A stretch of 64,000 nucleotides of DNA from an uncultured Gammaproteobacteria bacterium (GTDB lineage: Bacteria; Patescibacteriota; Patescibacteriia; UBA9934; GWF2-40-263), in assembly GCA_964399675.1 (NCBI GenBank), contig CAYNRK010000004.1, forward strand, positions 12,715-76,714, in the 5' to 3' direction. This document shows, in pieces, positions 8,744-61,750 of this stretch. Both the position numbers and the translations under genes were made by a program. A model generated the notes under the pieces. That model had not been told where the DNA came from, did not search any database, and was given only the letters and a program-made list of their open reading frames with translations. Numbering within the stretch: position 1 is the stretch's first letter; each line of letters begins with the position of its first letter.

Positions 8744-8945
8744 CTCATCTTGCGTCGTTGCGAGGAGCGAAGCGACGAAGCAATCTCCGTGTTATTATGT
8801 CATCCCGACCGAGCGAAGCGAGCGGAGGGATCTCGCATATTCGAGATCTCTCCGTGCGCTCGCTTTGCTCGTTTAGTCGAGATGACAAAGCATGACTACA
8901 CGGAGATTGCTTCGTCAGTCGGCTTCGCCTCCTTCCTCGCAAAGA
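8744..8945. repeat. family-A nested palindromic element
   Basis: Same four modules as 2614..2853, almost base-for-base. Confidence 0.85.
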
Positions 8946-22505: not shown

Positions 22506-22612
22506 TTGCTGTCATCCCGAGCGAAGGCCCGTCAGACGGGCCGAAGCCGAGGGATCTCGAATATTGCGAGATCTCTCCGCTCGCTTCGCTCGGTCGAGAT
22601 GACATCTAGTAT
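22505..22612. repeat. family-A palindromic element (modules 3 and 4 plus the ggcccgtcagacgggcc submodule)
   Basis: gtcatcccgagcgaag..gagggatctcgaatattgcgagatctctcc..tcgagatgac. Confidence 0.8.
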
Positions 22613-26905: not shown

Positions 26906-27472
26906 TCATTTTACAATCAGAGCACCTTCCATTCCAAATGTTTGGTGACTTCCAACATCACAGTAAAAAGGATACTCGCCTGATTTTGTTGGCGCAGTAA
27001 ACGTCAGTGCTTCACCTTGCTTGATCGAGTAATCAAGATTAATCTCATCAATCACAAATGTATGGAAGCCGGCATTTTTTGTGAATGAGATTGTAATTTT
27101 TTCACCTGGGCTTGCATTAATAACATTTGGGGAAAAGAAGAAGTTTCCAGATTCCATATTCAAACTGTTACCGGTTGGATCGCCAAGAACAACATCTGTT
27201 ACTGGCACACCGTCTTCTTCATCAGGTAGATCTTCAGCCTCTGGTTCTTCTGTAATGGGTTTATAAGTAACATTCATGCCAGAATCAGTTTTAACAGTTA
27301 TTGTTTCAGAATCTTCTGCCTGGCTTTCTTGATCATCTGATCCGCCTTTAATAATATCCATTACATCTGAACGGCTGTCTGCTGATTTTGTTTCTGTTTG
27401 AGATTCTGTTGCAGATGCGCATCCTCCCCCAATAAGAACAAGAATTCCAAGACTTATAAGGGTTTTTTTCAT
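26906..27472 (-). CDS. cupredoxin-domain lipoprotein (plastocyanin/azurin-like)
   Basis: Lipobox ..IGGGC. C-terminal type 1 Cu ligands H..C....H....M (FYCDVGSHQTFGM). Confidence 0.7.
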   Translation of the reverse strand: MKKTLISLGILVLIGGGCASATESQTETKSADSRSDVMDIIKGGSDDQESQAEDSETITVKTDSGMNVTYKPITEEPEAEDLPDEEDGVPVTDVVLGDPTGNSLNMESGNFFFSPNVINASPGEKITISFTKNAGFHTFVIDEINLDYSIKQGEALTFTAPTKSGEYPFYCDVGSHQTFGMEGALIVK

Positions 27473-27477
27473 AATTT

Positions 27478-27605
27478 TTCCTTTGTCATCCCGAGCGAGC
27501 CCATTCGACTCACTTCGTTCGCTCAGGGCAGGCTCCGCGAGCCGAGGGATCTCGTATATTCGAGATCTCTCCGCTCGGCTGACGCCTCGGTCGAGATGAC
27601 ATTAG
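27478..27605. repeat. family-A palindromic element
   Basis: gtcatcccgagcgagcc..gagggatctcgtatattcgagatctctcc..tcgagatgac. Confidence 0.8.
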
Positions 27606-27726
27606 ATAGATAAAGGGGTTAATCTTTCTACGTTAAGATTAACGCGATTTCACTTAGATGACAAGATGATACCAAAGCTTAGCTTTGGTAAGAGGATTAT
27701 CCACAGTTTATTGTGGGTATTTTTGT

Positions 27727-27755
27727 TGACGAGTGTTTGTGTGTGGGATAGAATG
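27727..27755 (+). promoter_or_regulatory. sigma70-like promoter (TTGACG-17-TAGAAT) with about 145-nt structured leader upstream of mraZ
   Basis: Hexamers read directly. The leader contains several hairpins. Confidence 0.45.
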
Positions 27756-27906
27756 GTTGGGAGTGGAGAAAAGTGGGGATTAGCGAAGTTCTTCGCTGAT
27801 GCTCACTTTTGTTACTTGACCCAGGCTATCCACCTTCGCTAAAGCTTCGGTGGACAGGAAGCCTGGGGCTACCGGTTAATTCGTGAGCTTTCACTCAAGC
27901 GCCTCT

Positions 27907-28338
27907 ATGTTTATTGGAGAATATAAACATGCCATAGATGAGAAGGGACGTCTTGCGATTCCCAAAAAATTTCGAAAGAAATTAGAAAAAGGCGCTGTTG
28001 TTACAAGAGGATTGGACACAGCTCTTTTCCTGTTTCCCAAGGAGGAGTGGGACAAGCTCGCGGAAAAACTCGCAAGTTTGCCCCTGGGGCAATCCAATAG
28101 CCGTGCATTCGCCCGACTCATGCTTGCGGGCGCAATGGACGTGGCTTTGGACAAACAGGGGAGGGTTGTGATTCCGGAATATTTACGCTCATACGCAACA
28201 CTAAAAAAGAACGTTATTGTTGCCGGACTTTTTACGCGCCTTGAACTTTGGGATGAAAAGAAATGGGAGGCGTATAAGAAAAAGGTTGAAGGCGATGCAG
28301 AAAGTGTTGCTGAGAAATTAGGAGAGTTAGGGTTTTAG
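27907..28338 (+). CDS. mraZ: transcriptional regulator MraZ
   Basis: MFIGEYKHAIDEKGRLAIPKKFR and a second ..DKQGRVVIPEYLR repeat (two MraZ/SpoVT-AbrB-like halves). Start at the Met matching the canonical MraZ N-terminus. Confidence 0.85.
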   Translation: MFIGEYKHAIDEKGRLAIPKKFRKKLEKGAVVTRGLDTALFLFPKEEWDKLAEKLASLPLGQSNSRAFARLMLAGAMDVALDKQGRVVIPEYLRSYATLKKNVIVAGLFTRLELWDEKKWEAYKKKVEGDAESVAEKLGELGF

Positions 28339-28429
28339 AAAATTCAGGATTCCAGGTCGCGCGGAGGAGAAGCGGCCCGGCATCCTGAAGTAAGTCCGTG
28401 TGACCCATTGTATGGAAAATTTTAACCAT

Positions 28430-29299
28430 ATGATCACACATGTACCTGTCTTACTTCATGAAGTGATTGAGTACTTCAATCCAAAGCCGAACCAATTGTT
28501 TATTGACGGCACTGTGGGGCAGGGAGGACACGCTGAGGTTATCCTTGAGCGTATCCTTCCTCGGGGCCGTCTGCTCGGAATCGATCGTGATTCTGAAAGT
28601 CTGGGAGTCGCAAAGAAGCGACTTTTATCATCGCAGGATCGAGTTGTCTTTGTAGAGGACTCGTTTGCGAACACAAAATCCCACGCCTATGTTCATCAAT
28701 TCACTCATGTTAACGGAATCCTATTGGATCTTGGCTTTGCTTCTCATCACGTTGATGTGGCAAGCCGCGGTTTCACGTTCAAGAACAATGGCCCGTTTGA
28801 CATGCGTTATGACCGATCTCAGAAGCTCAGTGCACAGGAGATAGTTAATACTTGGTCTGAAGATGAATTGGCACGGATTTTTCGTATCTACGGTGAAGAG
28901 AAAAAGGCACGTGAGATTGCAAAAGCGATTGTGCGCGCCAGAAAAACCAAACCTCTTAAAAGTACAACCCAGCTGGCTGATTTAGTTGAGCAGGTTGTAA
29001 AACGAAGAGGGAAAATTCATCCAGCCACAAAAGTGTTTCAAGCAATCAGAATTGCTGTGAACACTGAGCTTGATGAGTTGGAGAAAGCACTTCCAGATCT
29101 CATTGAACTGCTGGAACCAAAAGGTCGAATAGCGATAATCACTTTTCATTCGCTTGAAGATCGAATGGTCAAACGCTTTTTTGCAAACAGTGATCAGTTA
29201 ACGCTGGTAAACAAAAAAGTGATTAAGCCGTCACAAAAAGAGATCAAAGCAAACCCAAGAGCACGAAGTGCAAAATTACGCATTGCAGAGAAAGTCTAA
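28430..29299 (+). CDS. rsmH: 16S rRNA m4C1402 methyltransferase
   Basis: HVPVLLHEVIEYF..FIDGTVGQGGHAE is the RsmH/MraW signature. Follows mraZ. Confidence 0.85.
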   Translation: MITHVPVLLHEVIEYFNPKPNQLFIDGTVGQGGHAEVILERILPRGRLLGIDRDSESLGVAKKRLLSSQDRVVFVEDSFANTKSHAYVHQFTHVNGILLDLGFASHHVDVASRGFTFKNNGPFDMRYDRSQKLSAQEIVNTWSEDELARIFRIYGEEKKAREIAKAIVRARKTKPLKSTTQLADLVEQVVKRRGKIHPATKVFQAIRIAVNTELDELEKALPDLIELLEPKGRIAIITFHSLEDRMVKRFFANSDQLTLVNKKVIKPSQKEIKANPRARSAKLRIAEKV

Positions 29300-29323
29300 A
29301 TCATATAGACCTCCCCACAGTCT

Positions 29324-29677
29324 ATGACTCCTCACGCACAGTCTTTTACAACACAACAAGTCAACACAAGATCTGTGCGCGATTTTTTTGCAGCAAAGGT
29401 TGGTTGGCTTAATGTTGTTACTTTGGGAGTTTTGTTTGTTCTTTGCTTGTCATATATCTTTTACGTGAACAGTGTCATTTCTCAAGGTTATAAAATGCGT
29501 GAACTTGAAACTAGAATTAACAATCTTACACTTTCAAATCAAGAGATTGAACTTGATTCAAGAAAAGCACAGTCTTTAAAAAATGTTGAGCGAAGTGTAA
29601 AAATGCTTGGTCTTGTAAAAGCTGATGGTCCGGTTTATGTAAAATCAACTGAACCAAGCTACGCACTTGCGGATTAG
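29324..29677 (+). CDS. FtsL-like cell division protein
   Basis: Small bitopic coiled-coil protein in the canonical position after rsmH. Confidence 0.5.
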   Translation: MTPHAQSFTTQQVNTRSVRDFFAAKVGWLNVVTLGVLFVLCLSYIFYVNSVISQGYKMRELETRINNLTLSNQEIELDSRKAQSLKNVERSVKMLGLVKADGPVYVKSTEPSYALAD

Positions 29678-29732
29678 TTAAAAGACGGACATAAGGGTCT
29701 GTTTTTTGTTTGTGATATAATTATTCCTGTCA

Positions 29733-29885
29733 TCTCGACCAAGGCGTTACTTACCCTTGTCATCTCGACCAAGGTGCTACTTACCCTTGTCATCTCGACC
29801 AAGGTGCTACTTACCCTTGTCATCTCGACCAAGGTGCTACTTACCCTTGTCATCTCGACCGAGCGAAGCGAGCGGAGAGATCTTG
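29733..29885. repeat. tandem array of four and a half 30-bp units (ccttgtcatctcgaccaaggtgctacttac) running into a family-A module
   Basis: Direct tandem copies with no spacers. The unit equals the gtcatctcgacc end of family A. Confidence 0.85.
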
Positions 29886-29889
29886 CATT

Positions 29890-30180
29890 ATGGAAGAAAA
29901 ATTTTACTACATTTATATACTTACCAACTCCTCCGAGGCGGTTCTATATGTTGGAGTCACGAATAATTTGATTAGAAGAATGCATGAGCATCAAAATAAA
30001 CTGATAGAAGGTTTTACGAAAAAGTATAACTGTACGAAACTTATTTACTATGAGGTCACCAACGATGTGTACGCTGCGCTAGAAAGAGAAAAACAAATAA
30101 AAAAATGGAATAGAAAAAAGAAGGAACATCTTGTTAATTTAGATAATCCCGAGTGGAAAGACTTGTCAGTCGATTTTTGA
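29890..30180 (+). CDS. GIY-YIG nuclease domain protein (small stand-alone)
   Basis: FYYIYILTN..VLYVGVTNNLIRRMHEH is GIY-YIG with the conserved R and E. The start codon abuts the repeat. Confidence 0.75.
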   Translation: MEEKFYYIYILTNSSEAVLYVGVTNNLIRRMHEHQNKLIEGFTKKYNCTKLIYYEVTNDVYAALEREKQIKKWNRKKKEHLVNLDNPEWKDLSVDF

Positions 30181-30184
30181 TAAT

Positions 30185-30535
30185 TCGAGATTTCTCGCGT
30201 AAAGCGACGTGCCACGTAAAAGCTCAAGCACTCTACGTGGTGTGGTCGCCACGCGACTTTGCGTCGGCTTCGCTCGGGATGACAAAAAAGAAATAATTGT
30301 CATCTCGACCGGAGGCCCGTCAGACGGGCCGGAGCGGAGAGATCTCGAATATGCGAGATTTCTCCGCTCGCTGTGCTCGGTCGAAATGACATAATAATAA
30401 TTGGTCGAAATGACATGTATCGGTTGTCATCCCGAGCGAAGCCGAGGGATCTCGAATATTGGAACAACACGATTCGAGATTTCTCCGCTCGCTTCGCTCG
30501 GTCGAAATGACAGAAACGGCACTGACACATAGAAT
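30185..30535. repeat. cluster of family-A modules, including the cgcgtaaagcgacgtg..cacgcgactttgcg palindrome and three gtcat..gatctcgaatat..atgac units
   Basis: Read directly from the sequence. Confidence 0.85.
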
Positions 30536-30541
30536 GTAACT

Positions 30542-31915
30542 ATGCTTAAACTCTACAACACATTAACACGCAAAAAGGAGGAGTTTCAGCCGCTTAAAAA
30601 AGGCAAGGTTGGTTTGTATGTTTGCGGGCCAACAGTTTATTGGTTTGCACATGTTGGGAACTTTCGAACCTATTTGTTTGCTGATGTTTTATGCCGCGCG
30701 CTTGAGATGAACGATTACTCGTTAACAACGGTTGTGAACATTACAGACGTTGGACATCTAACCGATGATGAAGATCAAGGTGAAGATAAAATGTTGGTTG
30801 CAATGCGTCGTGAAGGCAAAACGGCTTTTGAGATTGCTGAGTTTTATACGCAAGCATTCATGAAAGATGTTGAACAACTTAATATCAAGCCGGCTCAGGA
30901 ATTTCCAAAAGCAACTGATCATATTCAAGAACAGATCAACATGATTAAGCTTATTGAGAAAAATGGTTTTGCTTATACAACATCAGACGGTGTGTATTTT
31001 GATACAAGCAAGCTGCCAGAATACGGAGTTCTTTCAGGACAAAAAGCTGAGGACAAAAAAGCTGGCGCGCGCGTTGAGATGAAAGAGAAAAAAAATCCAA
31101 CGGATTTTGCATTGTGGAAGTTCTCACCTAAAGACCAGCAGCGAGACATGGAATGGGAATCGTCTTGGGGAAAGGGTTTCCCAGGTTGGCACATTGAATG
31201 TTCGGCAATGGCTGAAAAATATTTAGGGCCAACATTTGATATTCACACAGGCGGGGTTGATCACATTGCGGTGCATCATGAAAATGAGATTGCACAGGCT
31301 GTTGGCGCGAACCATGCTCAGCAGGCTAGGTTTTGGATGCATGGTGAGTATTTAACAGTTGATAACGGTAAGATGAGCAAGTCGCTTGGCAACTTGTATA
31401 CCATCGATGATTTGGTTGAAAAAGGAATTGATCCATTGTCATTTAGATATTTTGTTTTAGGAGCGCATTATCGAACCAAATTGAATTTTACTTGGGAGGC
31501 GCTTGAAGCTGCACAGAATGCTTTGTTTAGATTGCGAGATATTGTTCGAGATTGGGAAGCTCCAAAAGATGAATGTGATAAATGTGGAAAACGTTTTAAG
31601 GATGCAATCAATGATGATTTGAATACACCACAAGCGCTTGCGATTGTGTGGGAACTTGTTGACTCTGATAAACCATCACACACAAAAGCCCAGACACTTT
31701 TGAAGTTTGATGAGGTTCTTGGGCTTGGACTAAAGGAATACATTGCAAAACCGTTGTTGATTCCAGACGAAATAAGTGCTTTGCTTGTTGAACGAGAAAA
31801 GGTTCGTAAAGAAAAAGATTGGAAAGCATCAGATGAAATAAGAGAACAAATTAAAACAAAAGGATTTCTGGTTGAGGACACTGATCAGGGACAAAAACTT
31901 CGGGAGAAAAGATAG
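30542..31915 (+). CDS. cysS: cysteinyl-tRNA synthetase
   Basis: HIGH-type CGPTVYWFAHVGN and KMSKSLGN motifs. Confidence 0.9.
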   Translation: MLKLYNTLTRKKEEFQPLKKGKVGLYVCGPTVYWFAHVGNFRTYLFADVLCRALEMNDYSLTTVVNITDVGHLTDDEDQGEDKMLVAMRREGKTAFEIAEFYTQAFMKDVEQLNIKPAQEFPKATDHIQEQINMIKLIEKNGFAYTTSDGVYFDTSKLPEYGVLSGQKAEDKKAGARVEMKEKKNPTDFALWKFSPKDQQRDMEWESSWGKGFPGWHIECSAMAEKYLGPTFDIHTGGVDHIAVHHENEIAQAVGANHAQQARFWMHGEYLTVDNGKMSKSLGNLYTIDDLVEKGIDPLSFRYFVLGAHYRTKLNFTWEALEAAQNALFRLRDIVRDWEAPKDECDKCGKRFKDAINDDLNTPQALAIVWELVDSDKPSHTKAQTLLKFDEVLGLGLKEYIAKPLLIPDEISALLVEREKVRKEKDWKASDEIREQIKTKGFLVEDTDQGQKLREKR

Positions 31916-35139: not shown

Positions 35140-35400
35140 CCACCCAGTGCGTCATTGCGAGGAGGTCAAAGGCCGACGAAGTCGAGCTCAGCTCGACGAA
35201 GCAATCTCCGTGTAGAGTCATACTTTGTCATCTCGACTAAGCGAGCAAAGCGAGCGCACGGAGAGATCTCGCATATTCGAGATCTCTCGCGTAAAGCGAC
35301 GTGGTCGCCACGCGACTTTACGTCGGCAAGCTCGAGATGACATAATAACACGGAGATTGCTTCGGCCCGTCTGACGGGCCTCGCAAAGACGCAAGTGAAC
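35140..35400. repeat. family-A module cluster
   Basis: gcgtcattgcgagg, the acgtaaagtcgcgtggcgaccacg palindrome, and gatctcgcatattcgagatc. Confidence 0.85.
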
Positions 35401-35402
35401 AT

Positions 35403-36014
35403 ATGAATGAGTTAAACGAACAATTTGAAATTGAGGAAGAGGCAGAGGCTCATGCCAATAGAATTGAAAATGGTGATGCCAGACATCGCCTGGCTATTCA
35501 AATGCTCAAACAAACGCGAGATAGTTTGAATCATGTAATCAATTTGCTTGAAGATGGTGATACTTCGCGTGCCACAAGACACATGGTTGATCTTGTAACA
35601 AATCGTAAAGGCAGCATGGAGGAGTTTGAGTCTGAGTCTGGTGCAGCAATGATTGAAGGGGTTTTTGACGGACAGACAATGGTTGGTGCAGATGGCATTA
35701 GTTATCCAATTCCTGAGAACTATGCATCAAAATCTCAATTGGTTGAGGGTGACATGTTAAAACTATTTTTACGACCAGATGGCACACACGTTTTTAAACA
35801 AATCGGGCCGGTTGATAGACAACGTGTTGTTGGTAAGCTTGAGCATGATTCTCAAACAGCAGAGTATGTTGTCATTCACGATGACAGCATGTATAAAGTA
35901 CTTGATGCAAGCGTTAGTTATCACAAAGGAGTGCCTGGTGATGAAGTGGCAATCTTGATTCCAAAAGGAGGGAAAAGCCGTTGGGCGGCTGTTGAAAGAA
36001 TTATCAATCTATGA
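35403..36014 (+). CDS. hypothetical protein (co-oriented with and overlapping dnaX start)
   Basis: ORF only. Confidence 0.4.
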   Translation: MNELNEQFEIEEEAEAHANRIENGDARHRLAIQMLKQTRDSLNHVINLLEDGDTSRATRHMVDLVTNRKGSMEEFESESGAAMIEGVFDGQTMVGADGISYPIPENYASKSQLVEGDMLKLFLRPDGTHVFKQIGPVDRQRVVGKLEHDSQTAEYVVIHDDSMYKVLDASVSYHKGVPGDEVAILIPKGGKSRWAAVERIINL

Positions 36015-37666
36015 GCCAAACATTATATAGAAGATATCGACCGGAAAAGTTTAAGGATATTTCAGGTCAGGAACATGTTGTTAAAACCCTGCAGAATCAG
36101 CTAAAAGCTGGTTCTGTTGCTCATGCATATCTGTTTACAGGGCCACGTGGGATTGGGAAAACCACAATTGCGCGTTTGGTTGCAAAGGCTATTAATTGCG
36201 AGAAAGTAAAAGAAAGCGAGCCATGCGGAAAATGTTCGTCATGTACAGAGATTACTACTGGAAATGCGCTGGATGTTTTTGAGATTGACGCGGCATCTCA
36301 CACTGATGTTGAAAACGTTCGTGAGAACATTATTAAAAATGTTCGATTTGCACCAAACAAGTTGAATCGAAAAGTTTATATTATAGATGAGGTTCACATG
36401 CTTTCAACCTCTGCTTTTAACGCGCTGTTAAAAACACTTGAAGAACCCCCAGAGCACGCATTATTTATTCTTGCAACAACTGAGATTCATAAAGTTCCTG
36501 AGACGATTATTAGTCGTTGTCAGCGTTTTGATTTTGCAAGGATTGACAAAGCAGAGCTTGTTAAGCGAATGAAAAGGATTTTGAAAAAAGAAGGGGTGGT
36601 TGTGGCTGATGATGTGCTTGCAGAGATTGCACGACACAGCGGTGGATTTGCGCGCGATGCGGAAAGCATGCTTGGCCAAGTGCTGGCATTGGGAGAAAAG
36701 GAGATCAGTATGGATCAGGCAATGCTTGTGCTTCCGGCAACCACAGCAATTATTGTTGAACAATTTATTGATTCAATGTTTTCCAAAGGAGCAGGGGAGA
36801 CAATCAAGCTTTTGAATCAGAATCTTGAGCAGGGAGTTGACCTTAAACATTTTTTGGATGATGTTATTTCAAAGTTGCGCGACCAGCTTCTTGAAACTGT
36901 TTCAGAAGGAAAGGCTTTAGTTTCTGTTGATCAGCTTCGGTTTGCAATTGAGAAATTTTTAAAAGCCCGCAGACATATTAATGTTGATCACTTGCCACAG
37001 CTTCCGCTTGAATTGGCTATTGTGGAGATTGTAAGTGAAGGAGCCAGGGATCAGGAGCTGGCTGTCGGGAATAGCACATCTGCGTCATTGCGAGGAGCCG
37101 AGGGCGACGACGTAAAGTCGCGTGGCAACCACGTTGCTTTACGCAAAGCAGTCTCCGTGGAAAAAAAAATTGAAAAATCGGATTTTAAGAAACAGGAGGT
37201 TGATTTGGATATCCAAGAAACACAACCCCTGTCATCTCGACCGAGCGAAGCGAGCGGAGAGATCTCGCATATTCGAGATCTCCCGGCTTCGTCCAACAAC
37301 AGCGAGGCTTTGCTTGAGACAGTACAAGAGGAGACTGTGTTCGATTCCGTCCCAGTCATATCACTCGAGGAAGTCAAAGAAAAATGGCCAACCGTGTTTG
37401 AGCAAATTCAAGAGTGCAATGCATCCTTGCCGTTATTTATGGAGTCCTGTGAGATTTGTGGAGTAAAAGACGATCATGTTGAGCTTGCGTTTGAATACGA
37501 TTTGCACGTTCAGGCAGTGAACAAAGAAAAGAACCGTGTGTTAATTGAAAAGGTGTTGGAAAAGGTTTTGGGTAAGAAAGTTAAGGTGAGGGCTTTGAAA
37601 ACAGAAAAAAAGGAATCAGATTCGGTCAAAGATTTGCTTGAAGAGTTTGGTGGGAGTGTAGTGTAA
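36011..37666 (+). CDS. dnaX: DNA polymerase III subunit tau/gamma
   Basis: YRPEKF..GQEHVV..AYLFTGPRGIGKTT clamp-loader AAA+ module. Carries an in-frame family-A repeat insertion at 37075..37300. Confidence 0.9.
   Translation: MSQTLYRRYRPEKFKDISGQEHVVKTLQNQLKAGSVAHAYLFTGPRGIGKTTIARLVAKAINCEKVKESEPCGKCSSCTEITTGNALDVFEIDAASHTDVENVRENIIKNVRFAPNKLNRKVYIIDEVHMLSTSAFNALLKTLEEPPEHALFILATTEIHKVPETIISRCQRFDFARIDKAELVKRMKRILKKEGVVVADDVLAEIARHSGGFARDAESMLGQVLALGEKEISMDQAMLVLPATTAIIVEQFIDSMFSKGAGETIKLLNQNLEQGVDLKHFLDDVISKLRDQLLETVSEGKALVSVDQLRFAIEKFLKARRHINVDHLPQLPLELAIVEIVSEGARDQELAVGNSTSASLRGAEGDDVKSRGNHVALRKAVSVEKKIEKSDFKKQEVDLDIQETQPLSSRPSEASGEISHIRDLPASSNNSEALLETVQEETVFDSVPVISLEEVKEKWPTVFEQIQECNASLPLFMESCEICGVKDDHVELAFEYDLHVQAVNKEKNRVLIEKVLEKVLGKKVKVRALKTEKKESDSVKDLLEEFGGSVV
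37075..37300. repeat. family-A repeat inserted in frame inside dnaX (about 75 codons)
   Basis: gcgtcattgcgagg..acgtaaagtcgcgtggcaaccacg..gtcatctcgaccgagcgaagcgagcggagagatctcgcatattcgagatctc lies within the ORF and translates as ..SLRGAEGDDVKSRGNHVALR..SSRPSEASGEISHIRDL... Confidence 0.8.
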
Positions 37667-39315: not shown

Positions 39316-40207
39316 AAAAATTTATTGAAAATTCGATTATTTTTTTGGCAATGTCTTTGCCGGTAACTTCCTCCAAGGCTTTAAATCCAGGATTGGCATT
39401 TACTTCCAAAACAAGCGGTCCACTTTCAGATCTAATAAGATCAACTCCTGCAATTTCAAGGTTAACTGATTTTGCAACTTTTACTGCAAGTTGTTTTTCC
39501 TGATCTGATAATTCAATTTCTTTTCCTGTTCCACCTGTTGAAGTGTTTGCTCTAATGTCTCCAGAAGACGCTGATCGTTCCATTGCGGCAATTACTTTAT
39601 TTCCAATCACAAACGCACGCACATCTTTTCTTTCTGCCTCTTTGACAAATCGTTGAACAATAATTGGATTGTGATCTCGGATTGCTAAGTATTCAGCAAT
39701 TGGCTGAAAAGTCTCTTTGTCTGGCGCATAAAATACACCCTTACCATGAGTTCCAAATGCAATTTTGATAATCACAGGAAAACCAAGTTGATTTGCAAAC
39801 ACTAAAGCTTGTTCAGGATTTTTTGTGATTGCTGATTCAGGATGAGGAATGTCATTATTTTGAAAATGTAGTAATTGTCTAATTTTGTTTTTTGATAAAC
39901 CAAGATGATGCTTGCTGTTTATCAATTTAAATCCAGATTGATTTAAATAATGAATCGGATGCATGTGCAAGCTTGGCTCTTCAATAAAGTTTGGTCTTGG
40001 AAGAATTACATCAAGTTTTGGAAGTGGTTTTCCATCATAAAGATAACCCCCCCTAACCCCCCCTTGAAAGGGGGGGGAACAAAACAAAAAGTTTGGTTCG
40101 TACAATCGAACTGTTTCATGTCCAAGCTCTTTTGCAGCTTCTTCAAGTCGATCAACACTTGAATATTGCTCCCAGGATTGTTTTGAAATAAGAATTCCAA
40201 TTTTCAT
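39314..40207 (-). CDS. RimK-family ATP-grasp ligase (alpha-L-glutamate ligase-like)
   Basis: ATP-grasp C-terminal half (..AGVDLIRSESGPLVLEVNANPGF..). Contains an in-frame family-C element (..[12 protein letters not shown]..). The track N-terminus 40208..40321 is read-through of a family-A repeat. Confidence 0.7.
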   Translation of the reverse strand: MKIGILISKQSWEQYSSVDRLEEAAKELGHETVRLYEPNFLFCSPPFQGGVRGGYLYDGKPLPKLDVILPRPNFIEEPSLHMHPIHYLNQSGFKLINSKHHLGLSKNKIRQLLHFQNNDIPHPESAITKNPEQALVFANQLGFPVIIKIAFGTHGKGVFYAPDKETFQPIAEYLAIRDHNPIIVQRFVKEAERKDVRAFVIGNKVIAAMERSASSGDIRANTSTGGTGKEIELSDQEKQLAVKVAKSVNLEIAGVDLIRSESGPLVLEVNANPGFKALEEVTGKDIAKKIIEFSINF

Positions 40208-40325
40208 ATTATTTCTATATGTCATCTCGACCGGAGACCCGTCTGACGGGCCGGAGCGGAGAGATCTCGAACACGAATATGCGAGATCCCTCGACTCACT
40301 GTCGTTCGCTCGGGATGACACAGTG
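40208..40325. repeat. family-A palindromic element
   Basis: gtcatctcgaccggagacccgtctgacgggccggagcggagagatctcgaacacgaatatgcgagatccctcg..gggatgac. Confidence 0.8.
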
Positions 40326-45576: not shown

Positions 45577-47433
45577 ATGACCGATCAAAAGCAAATTCGG
45601 AATTTTTGCATTATTGCACACATTGATCATGGTAAGTCGACCCTTTCGGATCGGCTTCTTGAATTTACCGGCACAGTTGAAAAGAGAAAAATGCAAAATC
45701 AGATTTTGGATACAATGGAGCTGGAAAGGGAGAAAGGAATTACAATAAAGCTTGCGCCGGCAAGGATGGAGTATGACTACACACCAATAACCCCCCCTAA
45801 CCCCCCCTTGAAAAGGGGGGGAACTTACGTTCTCAATCTAATTGATACTCCGGGTCATGTTGATTTTAATTATGAAGTTTCTCGATCATTGGCAGCTGTT
45901 GAGGGCGCAATACTTTTAGTTGATGCAACTCAAGGTGTGCAAGCGCAAACCATTGCAAATCTTTTTTTGGCCATTGAAGAGGATTTAGAAATTATCCCTG
46001 TTCTTAATAAGATCGATCTTCCGGCAGCAGATGTTCCAGCACGAACAAAAGAAATTGTGAAACTTATTGGATGTGATCCAAAAGAGGTTTTGGCTGTAAG
46101 TGGAAAAACAGGCGAAGGTGTTGAAGCGCTTCTTGATGCAATTGTTAAGCGCATTCCAGCACCAAAAGGAAATACAGATGCGAATCCTCGAGCTTTGATT
46201 TTTGATTCTTTTTATGATGACTACCGTGGAGTCATGGCTTATATTCGCATGGTAGATGGTTTGCTTGAGAAAGGTTCAAAAATTGAAATGATTGGAACAA
46301 GTGCGCGCGCTGAAGTGTTGGAAATAGGGGCTGTTACTCCAAATGGACTAAAACCAAGTCCTGAATTTTCAACCGGGCAAATCGGTTATGTTGTCACAGG
46401 GCTTAAAGATATTTCCGCATGTCGAGTTGGTGATACTATAACTTCGGGAACCCCCCCTAACCCCCCCTTGAAAAGGGGGGGAACGTCACCGCTTCCGGGC
46501 TATAAAGATGTAAAGCCAATGGTTTTTGCTGGAATGTTTCCGCAAGAAGGTAATGACTTTCAAAAGTTAAGAGAAGCAATTGAAAGGCTAAAATTAAATG
46601 ATTCAGCGTTGATTTATGAACCAGAACACTCACCGGCGCTTGGTTATGGATTTCGGTGTGGGCTTTTGGGAATGTTGCATTTGGAGATTTTAAAAGAACG
46701 ACTTGAGCGTGAGTTTAATTTGGAACTTGTTGTTACTGTTCCATCAGTTGCGTATCAGGTTCATCAGCGTTCCAAAGAAATGATTATAATCAAGAGTCCG
46801 CTTGATCTTCCGGATCCGTCACATATTGATTTTATTGAAGAGCCATGGGTAAAATTAGATATTGTTACACCAACGGATTATGTTGGTGCTGTAATGCAGT
46901 TGGTGCAGGATAGGCGCGGTACTTACAAGAACACAGAATACCTTTCTGAGAATCGGGCGATTTTGCATTACGAGATTCCGCTTTCAATGATCATTGTTGA
47001 TTTTTACGATAAACTTAAAGGAGTAACAGCCGGATACGCATCAATGAATTATGAGGTCATTGATTATCGTGAAGCAAATGTTGTGCGTATGAATATTTTA
47101 GTGGCTGAGGATACTGTTGATGCGTTTGCTACACTTGTCTATCGAGATGAGGCGGATAAGGCTGGACGGAGAATTGTGAAGTCACTTAAAGAATCAATTC
47201 CGCGAGCAAACTTTGTAATCAAACTGCAAGCCGCTGTTGGTGGTAAGATTGTTGCAAGTGAAAGAATTTCCGCAGTTCGAAAAGACGTGACTGCAAATTT
47301 GTATGGAGGTGACGTAACACGGAAGCGCAAACTGCTTGAAAAGCAAAAGAAAGGAAAAGCTAAAATGCTAGCTCATGGAAAAGGAAAGGTAAATATTCCA
47401 ACGAATGCATATTTGAATGTTTTAAAAAGATAG
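45577..47433 (+). CDS. lepA: elongation factor 4
   Basis: FCIIAHIDHGKSTLSDRLL G1 motif and LepA-specific C-terminal domain. Two in-frame family-C insertions (PPNPPLKRGGT) at 45789..45825 and 46449..46485. Confidence 0.9.
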   Translation: MTDQKQIRNFCIIAHIDHGKSTLSDRLLEFTGTVEKRKMQNQILDTMELEREKGITIKLAPARMEYDYTPITPPNPPLKRGGTYVLNLIDTPGHVDFNYEVSRSLAAVEGAILLVDATQGVQAQTIANLFLAIEEDLEIIPVLNKIDLPAADVPARTKEIVKLIGCDPKEVLAVSGKTGEGVEALLDAIVKRIPAPKGNTDANPRALIFDSFYDDYRGVMAYIRMVDGLLEKGSKIEMIGTSARAEVLEIGAVTPNGLKPSPEFSTGQIGYVVTGLKDISACRVGDTITSGTPPNPPLKRGGTSPLPGYKDVKPMVFAGMFPQEGNDFQKLREAIERLKLNDSALIYEPEHSPALGYGFRCGLLGMLHLEILKERLEREFNLELVVTVPSVAYQVHQRSKEMIIIKSPLDLPDPSHIDFIEEPWVKLDIVTPTDYVGAVMQLVQDRRGTYKNTEYLSENRAILHYEIPLSMIIVDFYDKLKGVTAGYASMNYEVIDYREANVVRMNILVAEDTVDAFATLVYRDEADKAGRRIVKSLKESIPRANFVIKLQAAVGGKIVASERISAVRKDVTANLYGGDVTRKRKLLEKQKKGKAKMLAHGKGKVNIPTNAYLNVLKR

Positions 47434-47534: not shown

Positions 47535-47615
47535 AGTTGTCATCCCGAGCGAGGCGCAGCCAAGCCGAGGGATCTCGCATATTCGAGATTTCTCCGCTCG
47601 CTGTGCTCGGTCGAA
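47535..47615. repeat. family-A palindromic element
   Basis: gtcatcccgagcgaggcgcagccaagccgagggatctcgcatattcgagatttctcc..tcgaaatgac. Confidence 0.8.
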
Positions 47616-49355
47616 ATGACAAAAAGAATGCAGTGGCGTGTTGCTGAGAAAATTTTAGAGGAAATCAAAAAACAGTTTCCGGAGATTGATCCGGCTGTTT
47701 TGCAATTATTGTTTAATCGCAACATTAAAACACAAGAAGAGATTGATGTTTATTTAAGTCCGGATTGGAGCCGAGACACTTTTTCACCTCATCTGTTTAA
47801 CAACATGAGTGAGGCGATCAAAAGAGTGTTTGATTCACTTGAGGCCGGTGATGTTATTACTGTTCATGGAGATTATGATGCAGACGGCGTATGCGCTTCG
47901 GCAATTCTAATATCAACACTTAAAGAAATTTGTCGAGAATTTGATTTTGATAAATTAAAAATCACTTCATATATTCCGCATCGCGAAAAAGAGGGTTATG
48001 GCATGTCTGTGGAAACGATTGAGCATCTTCATGAACACGACAAGACAAAACTTGTAATTGCTGTTGATTGCGGAATTAGCAACAAGCCGGCGGTTGATCG
48101 CGGAAAAGAACAGGGAATGGATACGATTATTTGTGATCACCACACAATGCCGGAAGAATTACCTGATCAAGCAATTCTGATTCATCCGTTGGTTCCAGGT
48201 GAAAAGTTTCCAAACAAGCATCTTTGTGGCACAAGTGTGGCGTTTAAGCTTGCAAGCGCTTTGTTGGATGAGGCGCGAACACGCGGGGCATCGTTTCCGG
48301 CGGGTTATGAAAAGTGGCTTTTAGATTTGGTTGCAATCGCAACTGTGACAGATGTTATGCCGCTAACAGGAGAGAATCGTGTGCTTGAAAAGTATGGTCT
48401 TTTGGTTTTGAATAAAACACGAAGAAAAGGCATTCAGAAACTTATTGATATTGCAGGTTCAAAAAAGGGCAAGCTTGATACTGTTTCGATTGGTTTCCAA
48501 CTTGGTCCTCGGATTAACGCAGCCGGAAGAATGACGCATGCCAATGAGGCGCTTGCGCTTATGGTTGAGGAAGATGATTTGCAAGCAACAAAGTTTGCAA
48601 TGCAATTGAATGATCGAAATAAAGAACGACAAGCAGCTTCTCAACAAATGTATTTGCAAGCAAAAAAACTTGTAAAAGACCCTGGCGATCAAAAGTTGTT
48701 GATTGTGTGTCAACAAGGTTGGCCAGCAGGGCTTGTGGGTTTGGTTGCCGGAAAGCTTGTGAATGAGTTTCATGTACCAACGTTTGTTGTTGGACAAGAT
48801 GGTGAAAAATTTGTTGGCTCAGGTAGGAGTATTAAAGGATTTGATATTACAAAGGCCATGCATGCAGCATCGGAACATCTTGATCGATTTGGTGGACATC
48901 CGGAAGCGTGCGGCTTTTCAACCACTGGTCAGGATCGATTTGAAAAAGCAAAAAGTGTAATGCTTGAATATGCTCAAACACAGATTAAAGATGAAATGCT
49001 TTTGCCAATCCTAAATATTGACGCAGAAATTGATTTTAAAGATGTTACATGGGATTTGCAAAAAGAGCTTGAAAAGTTTGAGCCATTTGGTAAGGGGAAT
49101 CCGCAGCCGATTTTTGCCAGCAAACAAGTTGAGGTTGTAGACAAAAGATATGTTGGGGCTGATGGAAAACATTTACGACTGACGGTTCGTTCACCGCGTG
49201 GTACCATAATGAAAATGATTGGGTTTCGATTTGGTGAAATGTTTGATCAACTCGAAATCGGAAAACCAATAGACGTTGCTTATGAGATTGGTGTTAATGA
49301 GTGGAATGGTAATAGGGAATTGCAATTAAAGATTGTGGATATTAAATTGAGGTAG
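47616..49355 (+). CDS. recJ: single-stranded-DNA-specific exonuclease
   Basis: DHH motifs (VHGDYDADGVCA; CDHH), DHHA1 and an OB-fold C-terminus. Track start 47514 is repeat read-through. Confidence 0.85.
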   Translation: MTKRMQWRVAEKILEEIKKQFPEIDPAVLQLLFNRNIKTQEEIDVYLSPDWSRDTFSPHLFNNMSEAIKRVFDSLEAGDVITVHGDYDADGVCASAILISTLKEICREFDFDKLKITSYIPHREKEGYGMSVETIEHLHEHDKTKLVIAVDCGISNKPAVDRGKEQGMDTIICDHHTMPEELPDQAILIHPLVPGEKFPNKHLCGTSVAFKLASALLDEARTRGASFPAGYEKWLLDLVAIATVTDVMPLTGENRVLEKYGLLVLNKTRRKGIQKLIDIAGSKKGKLDTVSIGFQLGPRINAAGRMTHANEALALMVEEDDLQATKFAMQLNDRNKERQAASQQMYLQAKKLVKDPGDQKLLIVCQQGWPAGLVGLVAGKLVNEFHVPTFVVGQDGEKFVGSGRSIKGFDITKAMHAASEHLDRFGGHPEACGFSTTGQDRFEKAKSVMLEYAQTQIKDEMLLPILNIDAEIDFKDVTWDLQKELEKFEPFGKGNPQPIFASKQVEVVDKRYVGADGKHLRLTVRSPRGTIMKMIGFRFGEMFDQLEIGKPIDVAYEIGVNEWNGNRELQLKIVDIKLR

Positions 49356-51963: not shown

Positions 51964-52734
51964 ATGACACTCTTCATACTTTTTCTTTTAGGAATTTGTG
52001 TGGGGAGTTTTTTAAATGTTGCGATTTTTAGAGCGCATGAAGACGAGAAGTTGCGTGGGCGTTCAAAGTGCATGAAATGTGAGATTCCAATCGGTGCTAA
52101 AGATTTGGTGCCGGTTTTAAGCTACTTGTTGCTAAAAGGTAGGTGTAGAAATTGCAAACAAGTTTTCTCATGGCAATACCCAGCAGTTGAGCTTGCAACC
52201 GGATTGCTTTTTATAATTCCCCCCCTTATCAAGGGGGGGTTAGGGGGGGTTAGCTTTGATTTATTGCCGATCCTAATCCGCGACTGGGTTTTCATTTCTT
52301 TTCTAATAATCATTTTTGTTTACGATCTAAAGCACATGTTGATTTTGGATCGTTTTACAATTCCAGCAATGATATTTGCTTTGATCGCAAACCTTTGGAT
52401 TGGAATCATTCCAGCATGGTTATTGTTGCTTGGGGCAGTTGTGTTAGCAGGATTTTTTTACATTCAGTTTTTGATTTCAAAAGGCAAATGGATTGGAGGG
52501 GGAGATATTCGACTTGGAGCACTCATGGGATTTATGCTTGGACTCCAGTATGGATTGGTTGCTTTGTTTTTAGGATATGTATTTGGTGCTGTGTTTGGTT
52601 TGATTTTGATGGCGCTTAATAAAGCCAATAAAAAAACAATGATTCCTTTGGGAACATTTTTAACCATTTCAACGCTCATAACTCTTTTTTACGGGCACAA
52701 CATTCTTGATTGGTATTTAGGGTTTTTCGTCTGA
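51964..52734 (+). CDS. pilD: prepilin peptidase (A24 family)
   Basis: N-terminal CxxC..CxxC zinc module (CMKC..CRNC) and a polytopic A24 domain. In-frame family-C insertion at 52218..52253 (..PPLIKGGLGGV..). Confidence 0.8.
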   Translation: MTLFILFLLGICVGSFLNVAIFRAHEDEKLRGRSKCMKCEIPIGAKDLVPVLSYLLLKGRCRNCKQVFSWQYPAVELATGLLFIIPPLIKGGLGGVSFDLLPILIRDWVFISFLIIIFVYDLKHMLILDRFTIPAMIFALIANLWIGIIPAWLLLLGAVVLAGFFYIQFLISKGKWIGGGDIRLGALMGFMLGLQYGLVALFLGYVFGAVFGLILMALNKANKKTMIPLGTFLTISTLITLFYGHNILDWYLGFFV

Positions 52735-54323: not shown

Positions 54324-56348
<2,025 letters not shown>

Positions 56349-56379: not shown

Positions 56380-56520
56380 CTTCATCCTGTGTCATTGCTC
56401 TCCCCTGCGTCGTTGCGAGCCCCCTTTCGTGAAACGGGGCGAAGCAATCTCCGTAAAGAATTCCCTCGTGTCCTGCACCTTGTGTCATTGCGAGCGAAGC
56501 GAAGCAATCTTCGTAAAGAA
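56380..56520. repeat. family-A module cluster
   Basis: gtcattgc..gcgtcgttgcgagccccctttcgtgaaacggggcgaagcaatctccgt.. repeated twice. Confidence 0.8.
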
Positions 56521-58410: not shown

Positions 58411-58495
58411 TTTGTGTCATTGCGAGCGAAGCGAAGCAATCCTCGTATACGAAGATTGCCGCGTCGGCCTTCGGCCTCCTCGCAATGACACGGGA
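58411..58495. repeat. family-A palindromic element
   Basis: gtcattgcgagcgaagcgaagcaatcctcgtatacgaagattgccgcgtcggccttcggcctcctcgcaatgac. Confidence 0.8.
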
Positions 58496-60464: not shown

Positions 60465-60545
60465 CTCATGTCATCCCGAGCGAGCGCAGCGAGCCGAGGG
60501 ATCTCGCATATCCGAGATTTCTCCACTCGCTGCGCTCGGTCGAAA
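60465..60545. repeat. family-A palindromic element
   Basis: gtcatcccgagcgagcgcagcgagccgagggatctcgcatatccgagatttctcc..tcgaaatgac. Confidence 0.8.
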
Positions 60546-60563
60546 TGACAAGGAAGTAAGGAG

Positions 60564-61664: not shown

Positions 61665-61750
61665 TATCCTGCGTCATTGCGAGGAGGCCGAAGGCCGACG
61701 AAGCAATCTCCGTACACGGGGATTGCTTCGGTCGCAAAGCTCCCTCGCAA
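61665..61750. repeat. family-A palindromic element
   Basis: gtcattgcgaggaggccgaaggccgacgaagcaatctccgtacacggggattgcttcggtcgcaaagctccctcgcaaagacgc. Confidence 0.8.

Follow-up and report, generated by a model that had tools for sequence, protein, structure and literature searches.

A probable Ssn-family GIY-YIG nuclease gene nested within a palindromic hairpin repeat in Patescibacteria

A 64-kb stretch of contig CAYNRK010000004.1, hereafter the window, carries at 29890-30180 (+ strand) an open reading frame (ORF) for a 96-amino-acid GIY-YIG protein, enclosed by copies of a dispersed palindromic repeat that we term family A. The encoded protein is probably a nuclease of the Ssn family, with the family-A repeats as its cognate Ssn-related hairpin motifs (SRMs). 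The argument is carried by the homology of the protein and its catalytic residues, the nesting of the gene within a repeat, covariation within the repeat arms, and an association that extends across phyla with no other conserved partner protein. The Ssn system is of a kind already known, having been published in 2025 (Chenal et al., Nat Commun 2025, PMC11893778). To that account the window makes modest additions, namely a Patescibacteria host, variant arms, and recurrent half-site arrays whose copy number depends on the assembly.

SsnA of Neisseria meningitidis is a single-domain GIY-YIG protein of 94 amino acids belonging to CDD family cd10448, which binds the hairpin of the NTS repeat solely as single-stranded DNA (ssDNA) and cuts a few nucleotides 5' of a conserved GTC (PMC11893778). 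Cutting depends on the GTC before the palindrome and binding on the C that follows it; the stem sequence matters besides its shape, and the loop can be removed or extended (PMC11893778). The reverse strand, double-stranded DNA (dsDNA) and RNA are no substrates, and mutation of Y6, Y17 and E64 abolishes cutting (PMC11893778). Four enzymes have been tested so far, three from Neisseria and one from Wolbachia (PMC11893778).

The nuclease gene and the repeat that encloses it

The window ORF matches the Pfam GIY-YIG domain (PF01541) over residues 6-78 with an E-value of 2e-17 (63.7 bits vs a cut-off of 22.6). Its structure model is one compact domain of the GIY-YIG fold, with a predicted local distance difference test (pLDDT) score of 94.1. 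The best fold matches are UPF0213 (1zg2) and then Slx1 (4xlg, 7cq2), with UvrC-N also retrieved, and no Ssn structure is among the top solved-structure matches to the model. Residues Y9, Y20, G22, H34, E67 and N86 are invariant across 60 homologues. A tblastn search of the plasmid collection returned a 94-amino-acid ORF in a chromosome record of N. gonorrhoeae (E 4e-20), to which the window protein is 44% identical (BLASTP, E 3e-30) and whose Y6, Y17 and E64 align with window Y9, Y20 and E67. Judging from its length, from the position of these three residues as published and from its flanking CGTCATTCCCGCGCAGGCGGGAATCTAG repeats (NTS/dRS3), this ORF would appear to be the SsnA orthologue. The window protein falls within the limit used in the Ssn paper for homology, E < 1e-10 to Neisseria SsnA. 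No NCBIfam model scores above its cut-off for the window protein, the group I intron endonuclease model reaching 17.1 bits vs a cut-off of 56, and tblastn finds no second GIY-YIG ORF in the 64 kb. A preliminary description of this DNA, made from its letters, had put the protein forward as a candidate mobiliser or nicking enzyme of the surrounding repeats; that it is a strand-cutting nuclease aimed at them is now very likely.

Family-A elements are palindromes of 82-118 bp with the form TGTCATCYCGAsC ... GGAGRGATCTCGMAT / ATKCGAGATyTCTCC ... GsTCGARATGACA, where the slash marks the dyad axis. Their 13-nt terminus, TGTCATCTCGACC, occurs 28 times in the window with up to two mismatches, vs 1.04 expected and a maximum of 5 across 100 shuffles, and the window holds ten complete gene-less copies and one that is truncated at 37230. 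An element of 438 bp at 29848-30285 has the GIY-YIG ORF exactly at its dyad axis (GCAT / ATTCGAG). The left arm of this element (29848-29883, + strand) is an SRM-like hairpin, TGTC-ATCTC-GA..GCGAAGC..-GAGAT-CT, with a perfect 5-bp stem and the DNA fold ....(((((..(((..((...))..))).)))))). It is followed by the left half of the central palindrome, TGCAT, and 1 nt (29884-29889, + strand), so that the junction with the start codon reads ...GGAGAGATCTTGCAT-T-ATG; gene-less copies have the centre CTCGMAT / ATKCGAG. Beyond the stop codon the element continues as TGA-TA-ATTCGAGATTTCTC...GGGATGACA, with the right half of the central palindrome (ATTCGAG) and the right arm at 30183-30285 (- strand; TGTC-ATCCC-..long loop..-GAAAT-CT). 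As only 1 nt precedes the ATG and 2 nt follow the stop codon, the inserted cassette is the ORF plus 3 nt. The family-A module that had earlier been seen to abut the start codon does border it, the left arm ending 1 nt before the ATG; it is, more precisely, one half of a palindromic element whose other half follows the stop codon.

The element is preceded by a tandem array at 29728-29860 (+ strand), for which Tandem Repeats Finder gives 4.4 copies at a period of 30 with 98% matches (score 252). This bears out the 30-bp array of the preliminary description, with a start 5 nt ahead of the 29733 first noted. Each unit consists of the terminus TGTCATCTCGACC, equivalent to the 5' half of an arm hairpin, and a 17-nt spacer, AAGGTGCTACTTACCCT. 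The half-sites of the array have no 3' stem of their own, and the final unit runs on into the left arm of the gene-bearing element (29848-29888), just ahead of the ATG at 29890. Other assemblies of the same population have 3.4 (L085-L087; loci in related genomes are given L numbers) or 2.4 copies (L092) of the unit within otherwise near-identical sequence, which could be true variation or short-read assembly collapse of the repeat. The array is made up of duplicated 5' half-sites, most likely born of slippage or break repair at the element end. Iterated solo termini recur beside homologues in other phyla (L039, L023, L028, L021, L081, L098), one instance being a 23-bp array on a Planktothrix plasmid.

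Further modules 3' of the gene had also been reported, and these extend to 30512. Next to the right arm lies a complete gene-less element (30298-30391) with two inverted arms, of stems CTC and TTC, and a 14-nt centre, CTCGAATATGCGAG. A solo 13-nt terminus, GGTCGAAATGACA (30403-30415, - strand), copies the end of the adjoining element with a 24-nt period. It is followed by a second complete gene-less element (30425-30512) with arm types CCC and TTC and a 14-nt insertion at its centre.

Arm hairpins, distribution and proposed cleavage

The arms have the general form TGTC-(AT yyy ... rrr AT)-CT. Covariation was measured in 83 distinct 27-nt arms from all loci that were picked by their outer anchors only (TGTCAY, 17 nt, RTCY). 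The stem triplets are complementary in 70 of these 83 arms vs 11.8 expected. In their alignment 90.2% of cells are paired, vs 68.6% in shuffles and 17-48% in slid controls, and double-sided changes number 164 vs 51 in shuffles. Orthologous arms carry compensatory changes, such as ATCCC/GGGAT in L008 vs ATCCT/AGGAT in L019. Doublets of two arms number 86 in 38 loci, 11 of them in the window. Of 86 gene-less doublets, 50 have two arms with unlike stems, each of them self-complementary, which argues that selection acts on the arm hairpins one by one and not on a duplex between left and right. The positions critical for SsnA, GTC 5' of the stem and C 3' of it, are kept in the window arms, and across all loci and the window a scan finds C after at least 91% of hairpin-forming arms (439/481). 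The arm apex is often GCGAAGC or CCGAAGG, both of which form DNA mini-hairpins of extraordinary stability, far stronger than their RNA counterparts (PMC13037366). The arms were also considered as hammerhead or hairpin ribozymes on account of GUC and CUGA..GAA motifs, a candidate that was rejected since CUGA varies at its U and Rfam offers no matching model.

Several observations weigh against this assignment. When whole elements are folded with nearest-neighbour DNA parameters, a single long left-right hairpin has the lowest energy, so the support for arm hairpins comes from covariation and not from thermodynamics. The right arm beside the gene has two stem mismatches and an insertion, of ~30 nt relative to its closest relative (the right arm of the element at 35226-35342), so that the gene-bearing copy may be decaying. 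At least four stem types (CCC, CTC, TTC, TGC) occur in the window, with one ssn gene in 64 kb, and one enzyme may be unable to cut them all. Finally, the published SRM search string, HGTCWYN(0-2)YYVSBRHN(0-5)WNVSBRGN(0-2)RNCYNB, which was built from 29 genomes as a search aid and not as a family definition, finds nothing in the window, hits 1 of 76 related loci and gives 9 matches in a Neisseria control locus. Being missed by the string, the family-A arms make up a divergent class, marked by a GA/GA internal loop and by loops of ~11-60 nt.

The assignment to Ssn is strengthened by the distribution of gene and repeat outside the window. The protein family is large and strongly conserved, with more than 8000 clusters at 90% identity and 4329 clusters at 50% identity (E up to 1e-10) matched, and identity across phyla is about 60-70%. 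The association was sampled at 79 homologous loci with full flanks, from Patescibacteria, Chloroflexota, Nitrospirota, Planctomycetota, Bacillota, Pseudomonadota, Cyanobacteriota and other phyla. Termini flank the gene on both sides at 56 of these loci (71%), vs 5% at control positions in the same loci. The nesting is exactly that of the window at 37 of the 79; at the other 42 the gene stands beside elements. No second conserved neighbour protein was found at homologous loci. One apparent neighbour-protein cluster (22 loci) was taken as spurious, its listed members being minus-strand ORFs, one of them antisense over the gene. The pairing of gene and repeat suspected from the window is thus upheld by this flanking, by the identity with the Neisseria ORF and by the cutting of the Ssn family beside such hairpins in vitro. 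The worry that the adjacency might be peculiar to this one locus has not been borne out, relatives in many phyla being similarly flanked.

Some homologues have a setting of their own. On a Planktothrix agardhii plasmid (L098, NZ_LR882964.1) the homologue lies in a defence locus, between an MmeI-type restriction-modification gene and DISARM drmA, and in Nitrosomonas (L095, CM135180.1) it is again in a defence locus, between hsdS and hsdR of a type I system. In Sinorhizobium meliloti (L096, CP090106.1, 1664692-1664982) a homologue of 46% identity has another palindrome, ..CCCTCATCCCTGTGCTCGTCACAGGGAT.., on either side in place of TGTCAT-type arms, which suggests that the protein family has further repeat partners.

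The activity, cut position and biological role of the window protein are those that we infer by analogy with the SsnA enzymes. An arm exposed as ssDNA during replication, repair, DNA uptake or conjugation would fold, and the protein would bind the stem and the following C and cut the strand a few nucleotides 5' of TGTC. Left arms would be cut on the + strand and right arms on the - strand, in each case just beyond their own end of the element, so that both ends of the 438-bp unit would be cut, on opposite strands. Neither dsDNA nor RNA would be cut. The central gatctcgaatattcgagatc core, which the preliminary description had put forward as a nicking substrate, is probably the wrong target; by the same analogy the substrate would be the arm hairpin with its 5' GTC and 3' C, as ssDNA, and the cut would fall outside the element. 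The likely role would be to modulate recombination or to restrict ssDNA that enters the cell, as in Neisseria, where deletion of ssnA gives ~five-fold higher transformation by NTS-bearing DNA (PMC11893778).

Readings of how the repeats spread

The architecture of the gene-bearing element raises the question of mobility. The Ssn authors remark on the layout of NTS-ssnA-NTS, which is like that of an insertion sequence (IS), and propose domestication as for REP-associated transposases (PMC11893778). They also raise a mobiliser role for Ssn as a hypothesis (PMC11893778). On a tentative reading, which we consider rather unlikely as it stands, the 438-bp unit at 29848-30285 is an autonomous IS-like element with the Ssn nuclease as its mobiliser, and the gene-less doublets are its non-autonomous derivatives. 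Each strand would then be cut outside the 5' end when single-stranded, host replication and repair would finish the copying, and the half-site arrays would be footprints of aberrant events; we hold this scheme with the same reserve. Such a reading extends the favoured explanation of an Ssn nuclease with cognate hairpins and does not contradict it. An ORF-only cassette on the dyad axis between inverted arms, with cuts predicted at both outer boundaries, is what it would lead one to expect, and the recurrence of iterated solo termini near homologues in other phyla is also in its favour. Gene-less copies differ between related genomes, one element in L019 being absent at the equivalent site in L008 and a five-copy array in L028 being absent from L031, and a 76%-identical homologue is found in a different gene context.

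The gene itself behaves otherwise. It is at a constant locus in genomes of 70-94% nucleotide identity (L008/L019, L028/31/45/49, L011/16/17/53, L015/22 and L038/43), and in the complete 3.1-Mb genome of Nitrosomonas the exact queried protein (P0077) has a single occurrence, between hsdS and hsdR. A constant locus and a single copy have the look of a gene that is vertically kept and domesticated, not of one that is actively hopping. Strand transfer and ligation are not known for GIY-YIG enzymes of this size. The inverted ends are present, yet no target-site duplication is found in 62 of the 86 elements and there is no consistent one among them; the 5' flanks are pyrimidine-rich, with 79% C/T at position -1. 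No filled-vs-empty pair was found for the gene: in the search for empty sites the ftsL-like relatives have different downstream genes, with no usable synteny, and the neighbours of the 76%-identical homologue are absent from the window. Contigs with this homologue often end near family-A repeats. In one contig of 689 bp (L093) the 3' part of ssn and the downstream element are joined to an element by glyS of the genome with the 76% homologue; it was set aside as evidence of mobility, being in all likelihood a chimera assembled through the repeat that the two have in common. That the Ssn nuclease multiplies the hairpin doublets, in a prokaryotic class of mobile element driven by a 96-amino-acid GIY-YIG ssDNA nuclease instead of a transposase, with 29848-30285 as the master copy and the arrays as scars of end processing, is in our view unlikely. 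If true, such multiplication would explain SRM-, NTS- and dRS3-type repeats at hundreds of copies in many phyla.

The preliminary description had framed the gene as a homing nuclease. In its classic form this would mean that a GIY-YIG homing endonuclease gene invaded the centre of the palindrome, cuts gene-less copies as dsDNA at their CTCGMATATKCGAG core and is copied in by recombinational repair, with the arms as homology. The precise insertion on the dyad axis, with just 1 + 2 extra nt, would suit such an invader, as would small insertions at the equal central point of the elements at 30425-30512 and 40220-40320 and weak similarities to homing endonucleases in PHROG and NCBIfam (E about 1e-4 to 5e-3). 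The framing nevertheless fails on the protein, a single 96-amino-acid catalytic domain without a DNA-binding domain, whose characterised relatives act only on ssDNA and are inactive on dsDNA. It fails also on the repeats: the gene is in just 1 of 12 window elements, it is not nested at the 42 loci noted above, and central sequences vary between lineages while the arm ends (TGTC, C) are conserved, so that the conserved contact is the arm and not the core. We regard classic homing as very improbable.

It is similarly hard to credit that the adjacency has no enzymatic meaning and that the arms act in transcription or at the RNA level (as terminators, mRNA stabilisers or in translational control) and are tolerated by a small gene: the elements are nearly all intergenic, the 3' half of the left-arm stem overlaps GGAGAG, a Shine-Dalgarno-like tract 10 nt ahead of the ATG, and an element terminus supplies a -35-like hexamer upstream of cysS, although not above chance, but across many phyla the association singles out this one protein family, an Rfam E-value scan of 27000-31000 gives chance matches only and no RNA family, relatives bind their motif as ssDNA and not as RNA, and the apical GCGAAGC-type motifs are DNA-specific stabilisers. 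An Ssn-family nuclease acting on arm hairpins as ssDNA is the reading that we retain.

Genomic setting and comparison with known systems

The other complete gene-less family-A elements, located by motif scan, are dispersed through the window at 2700-2789, 8798-8887, 22510-22604, 27484-27601, 35226-35342 (whose right arm is closest to the arm 3' of the gene), 40220-40320, 47538-47621 and 60469-60550. The truncated copy, 37230-37290, keeps its left arm and centre but breaks off after the start of the right arm, short of the ATGACA terminus, and lies within a long ORF (36011-37666). Three elements (2690-2799, 8788-8897, 35216-35228) have a common extra flank, rGTCATrCTT, at the CTC-type arm, which is a 9-nt mini-duplication of the terminus beside a full arm. 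A second family of the same arm type, with stem ATTGC/GCAAT (TGTCATTGCGAGCGAAGCGAAGCAATCC...), is found at 58415-58490, 56483-56509, 56390-56449, 35150-35206, 61672-61708 and 37083-37095, where it forms a single complete doublet and a number of lone arms. At least two Ssn-type repeat families are therefore present in the genome, with one ssn gene in the 64 kb. An element of ~36 nt, TAACCCCCCCTAACCCCCCCTTGAAAAGGGGGGGAAC, has five copies (40044-40090, 45788-45835, 46449-46495, 52225-52260 in reverse, and 54812-54860) and forms a C7/G7 hairpin after repeated TAACCCCCCC; most of these positions are within the spans of long ORFs listed as candidate genes. Related genomes have palindromic C/G-rich insertions of ~30 nt in conserved genes (L019 positions 5050 and 5212, L028 position 2285, L049 position 3593).

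The repeat cluster lies between mraZ, rsmH and an ftsL-like gene upstream and cysS downstream. The closest named relatives of CysS are from Candidatus Uhrbacteria and other Patescibacteria (64-67% identity). Within 29677-30542 the ftsL-like gene and cysS are parted only by the repeat cluster with ssn. In the relatives L089 and L088 other genes follow ftsL, four of them in L089, including a sigma-70 factor, ahead of cysS; these intervening genes are absent from the 64 kb. A consensus scan places a terminator-like hairpin with a T-run after the ftsL-like gene (29679-29708, + strand), at the upstream limit of the cluster. Between it and the tandem array is an extended -10-like site, TGTGATATAAT (29711-29721), and if this is used the ssn transcript would start with the array. 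A promoter-like site at 30507-30535 (10/12 matches) joins the right terminus of the last element, ATGACA, to TAGAAT 17 nt downstream, ahead of the cysS start at 30542; the count of such sites in the consensus scan is not above chance in the region.

What appears to be a clear Ssn member in Patescibacteria, paired with a hairpin motif that the published string misses, indicates that the repeat partners of the family are more varied than the string captures. Each pair of enzyme and motif is a potential ssDNA-cutting tool with its own specificity. The ORF on the dyad axis, the differing self-paired arm stems and the recurrent half-site arrays all bear on how such repeats spread. For annotation, family A is not an orphan repeat and should be read together with the ssn gene.

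Among known systems, UPF0213 proteins (BH0048, EF2693; YhbQ-like) and SLX1 provide the nearest solved folds, and UPF0213 is also a small stand-alone GIY-YIG protein. Their identity to the window protein is only ~25%, and SLX1 has extra domains, needs SLX4 and acts on branched dsDNA. UPF0213 proteins are not known to be associated with repeats. IS200/IS605 elements have subterminal hairpins that are recognised as ssDNA, cleavage beside the hairpin and no target duplication; for family A the first two are predicted, and its elements show no consistent duplication. The IS200/IS605 ends are not inverted repeats and their enzyme is an HUH transposase, as against inverted ends and a 96-amino-acid nuclease in the window. 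REPIN-RAYT systems are closer in layout, with inverted doublets of short hairpins between genes, a gene that is low in copy number, kept by vertical descent and bordered by repeats of its own, an enzyme that recognises ssDNA hairpins (as predicted for the window protein), and no consistent target-site duplication. They differ in having an HUH/Y1 transposase where the window has a GIY-YIG nuclease, for which strand-transfer chemistry is not known, and a GTAG flank where the window has TGTC. In the dRS3/NIME repeats, the dRS3 core ATTCCC-N8-GGGAAT is the stem of a like hairpin and, as in the window, the repeats form clustered intergenic arrays; the stem differs in sequence and length, and NIMEs are mosaics of variable RS segments whereas the window has regular two-arm doublets.

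The closest system is Ssn/NTS itself. The Patescibacteria host (Uhrbacteria-like) and the tandem half-site arrays are not mentioned in PMC11893778. In the window arms a 5-bp stem leads to a GA/GA internal loop, then to a short second stem with a GNA loop, or else the loops are much longer, vs the continuous 8-bp stem of Neisseria, and the arms are arranged as doublets of 82-118 bp with a central palindrome. In both systems a single-domain GIY-YIG protein of 94-96 amino acids, with equal catalytic Y, Y and E and 44% identity between the two, is encoded between inverted hairpin repeats that have GTC 5' and C 3' of the stem and many dispersed intergenic copies. The rates of association also agree: 71% of homologue loci have at least one SRM and 42% have SRMs on both sides in the published survey (PMC11893778), and 71% of the loci sampled here have termini on both sides.

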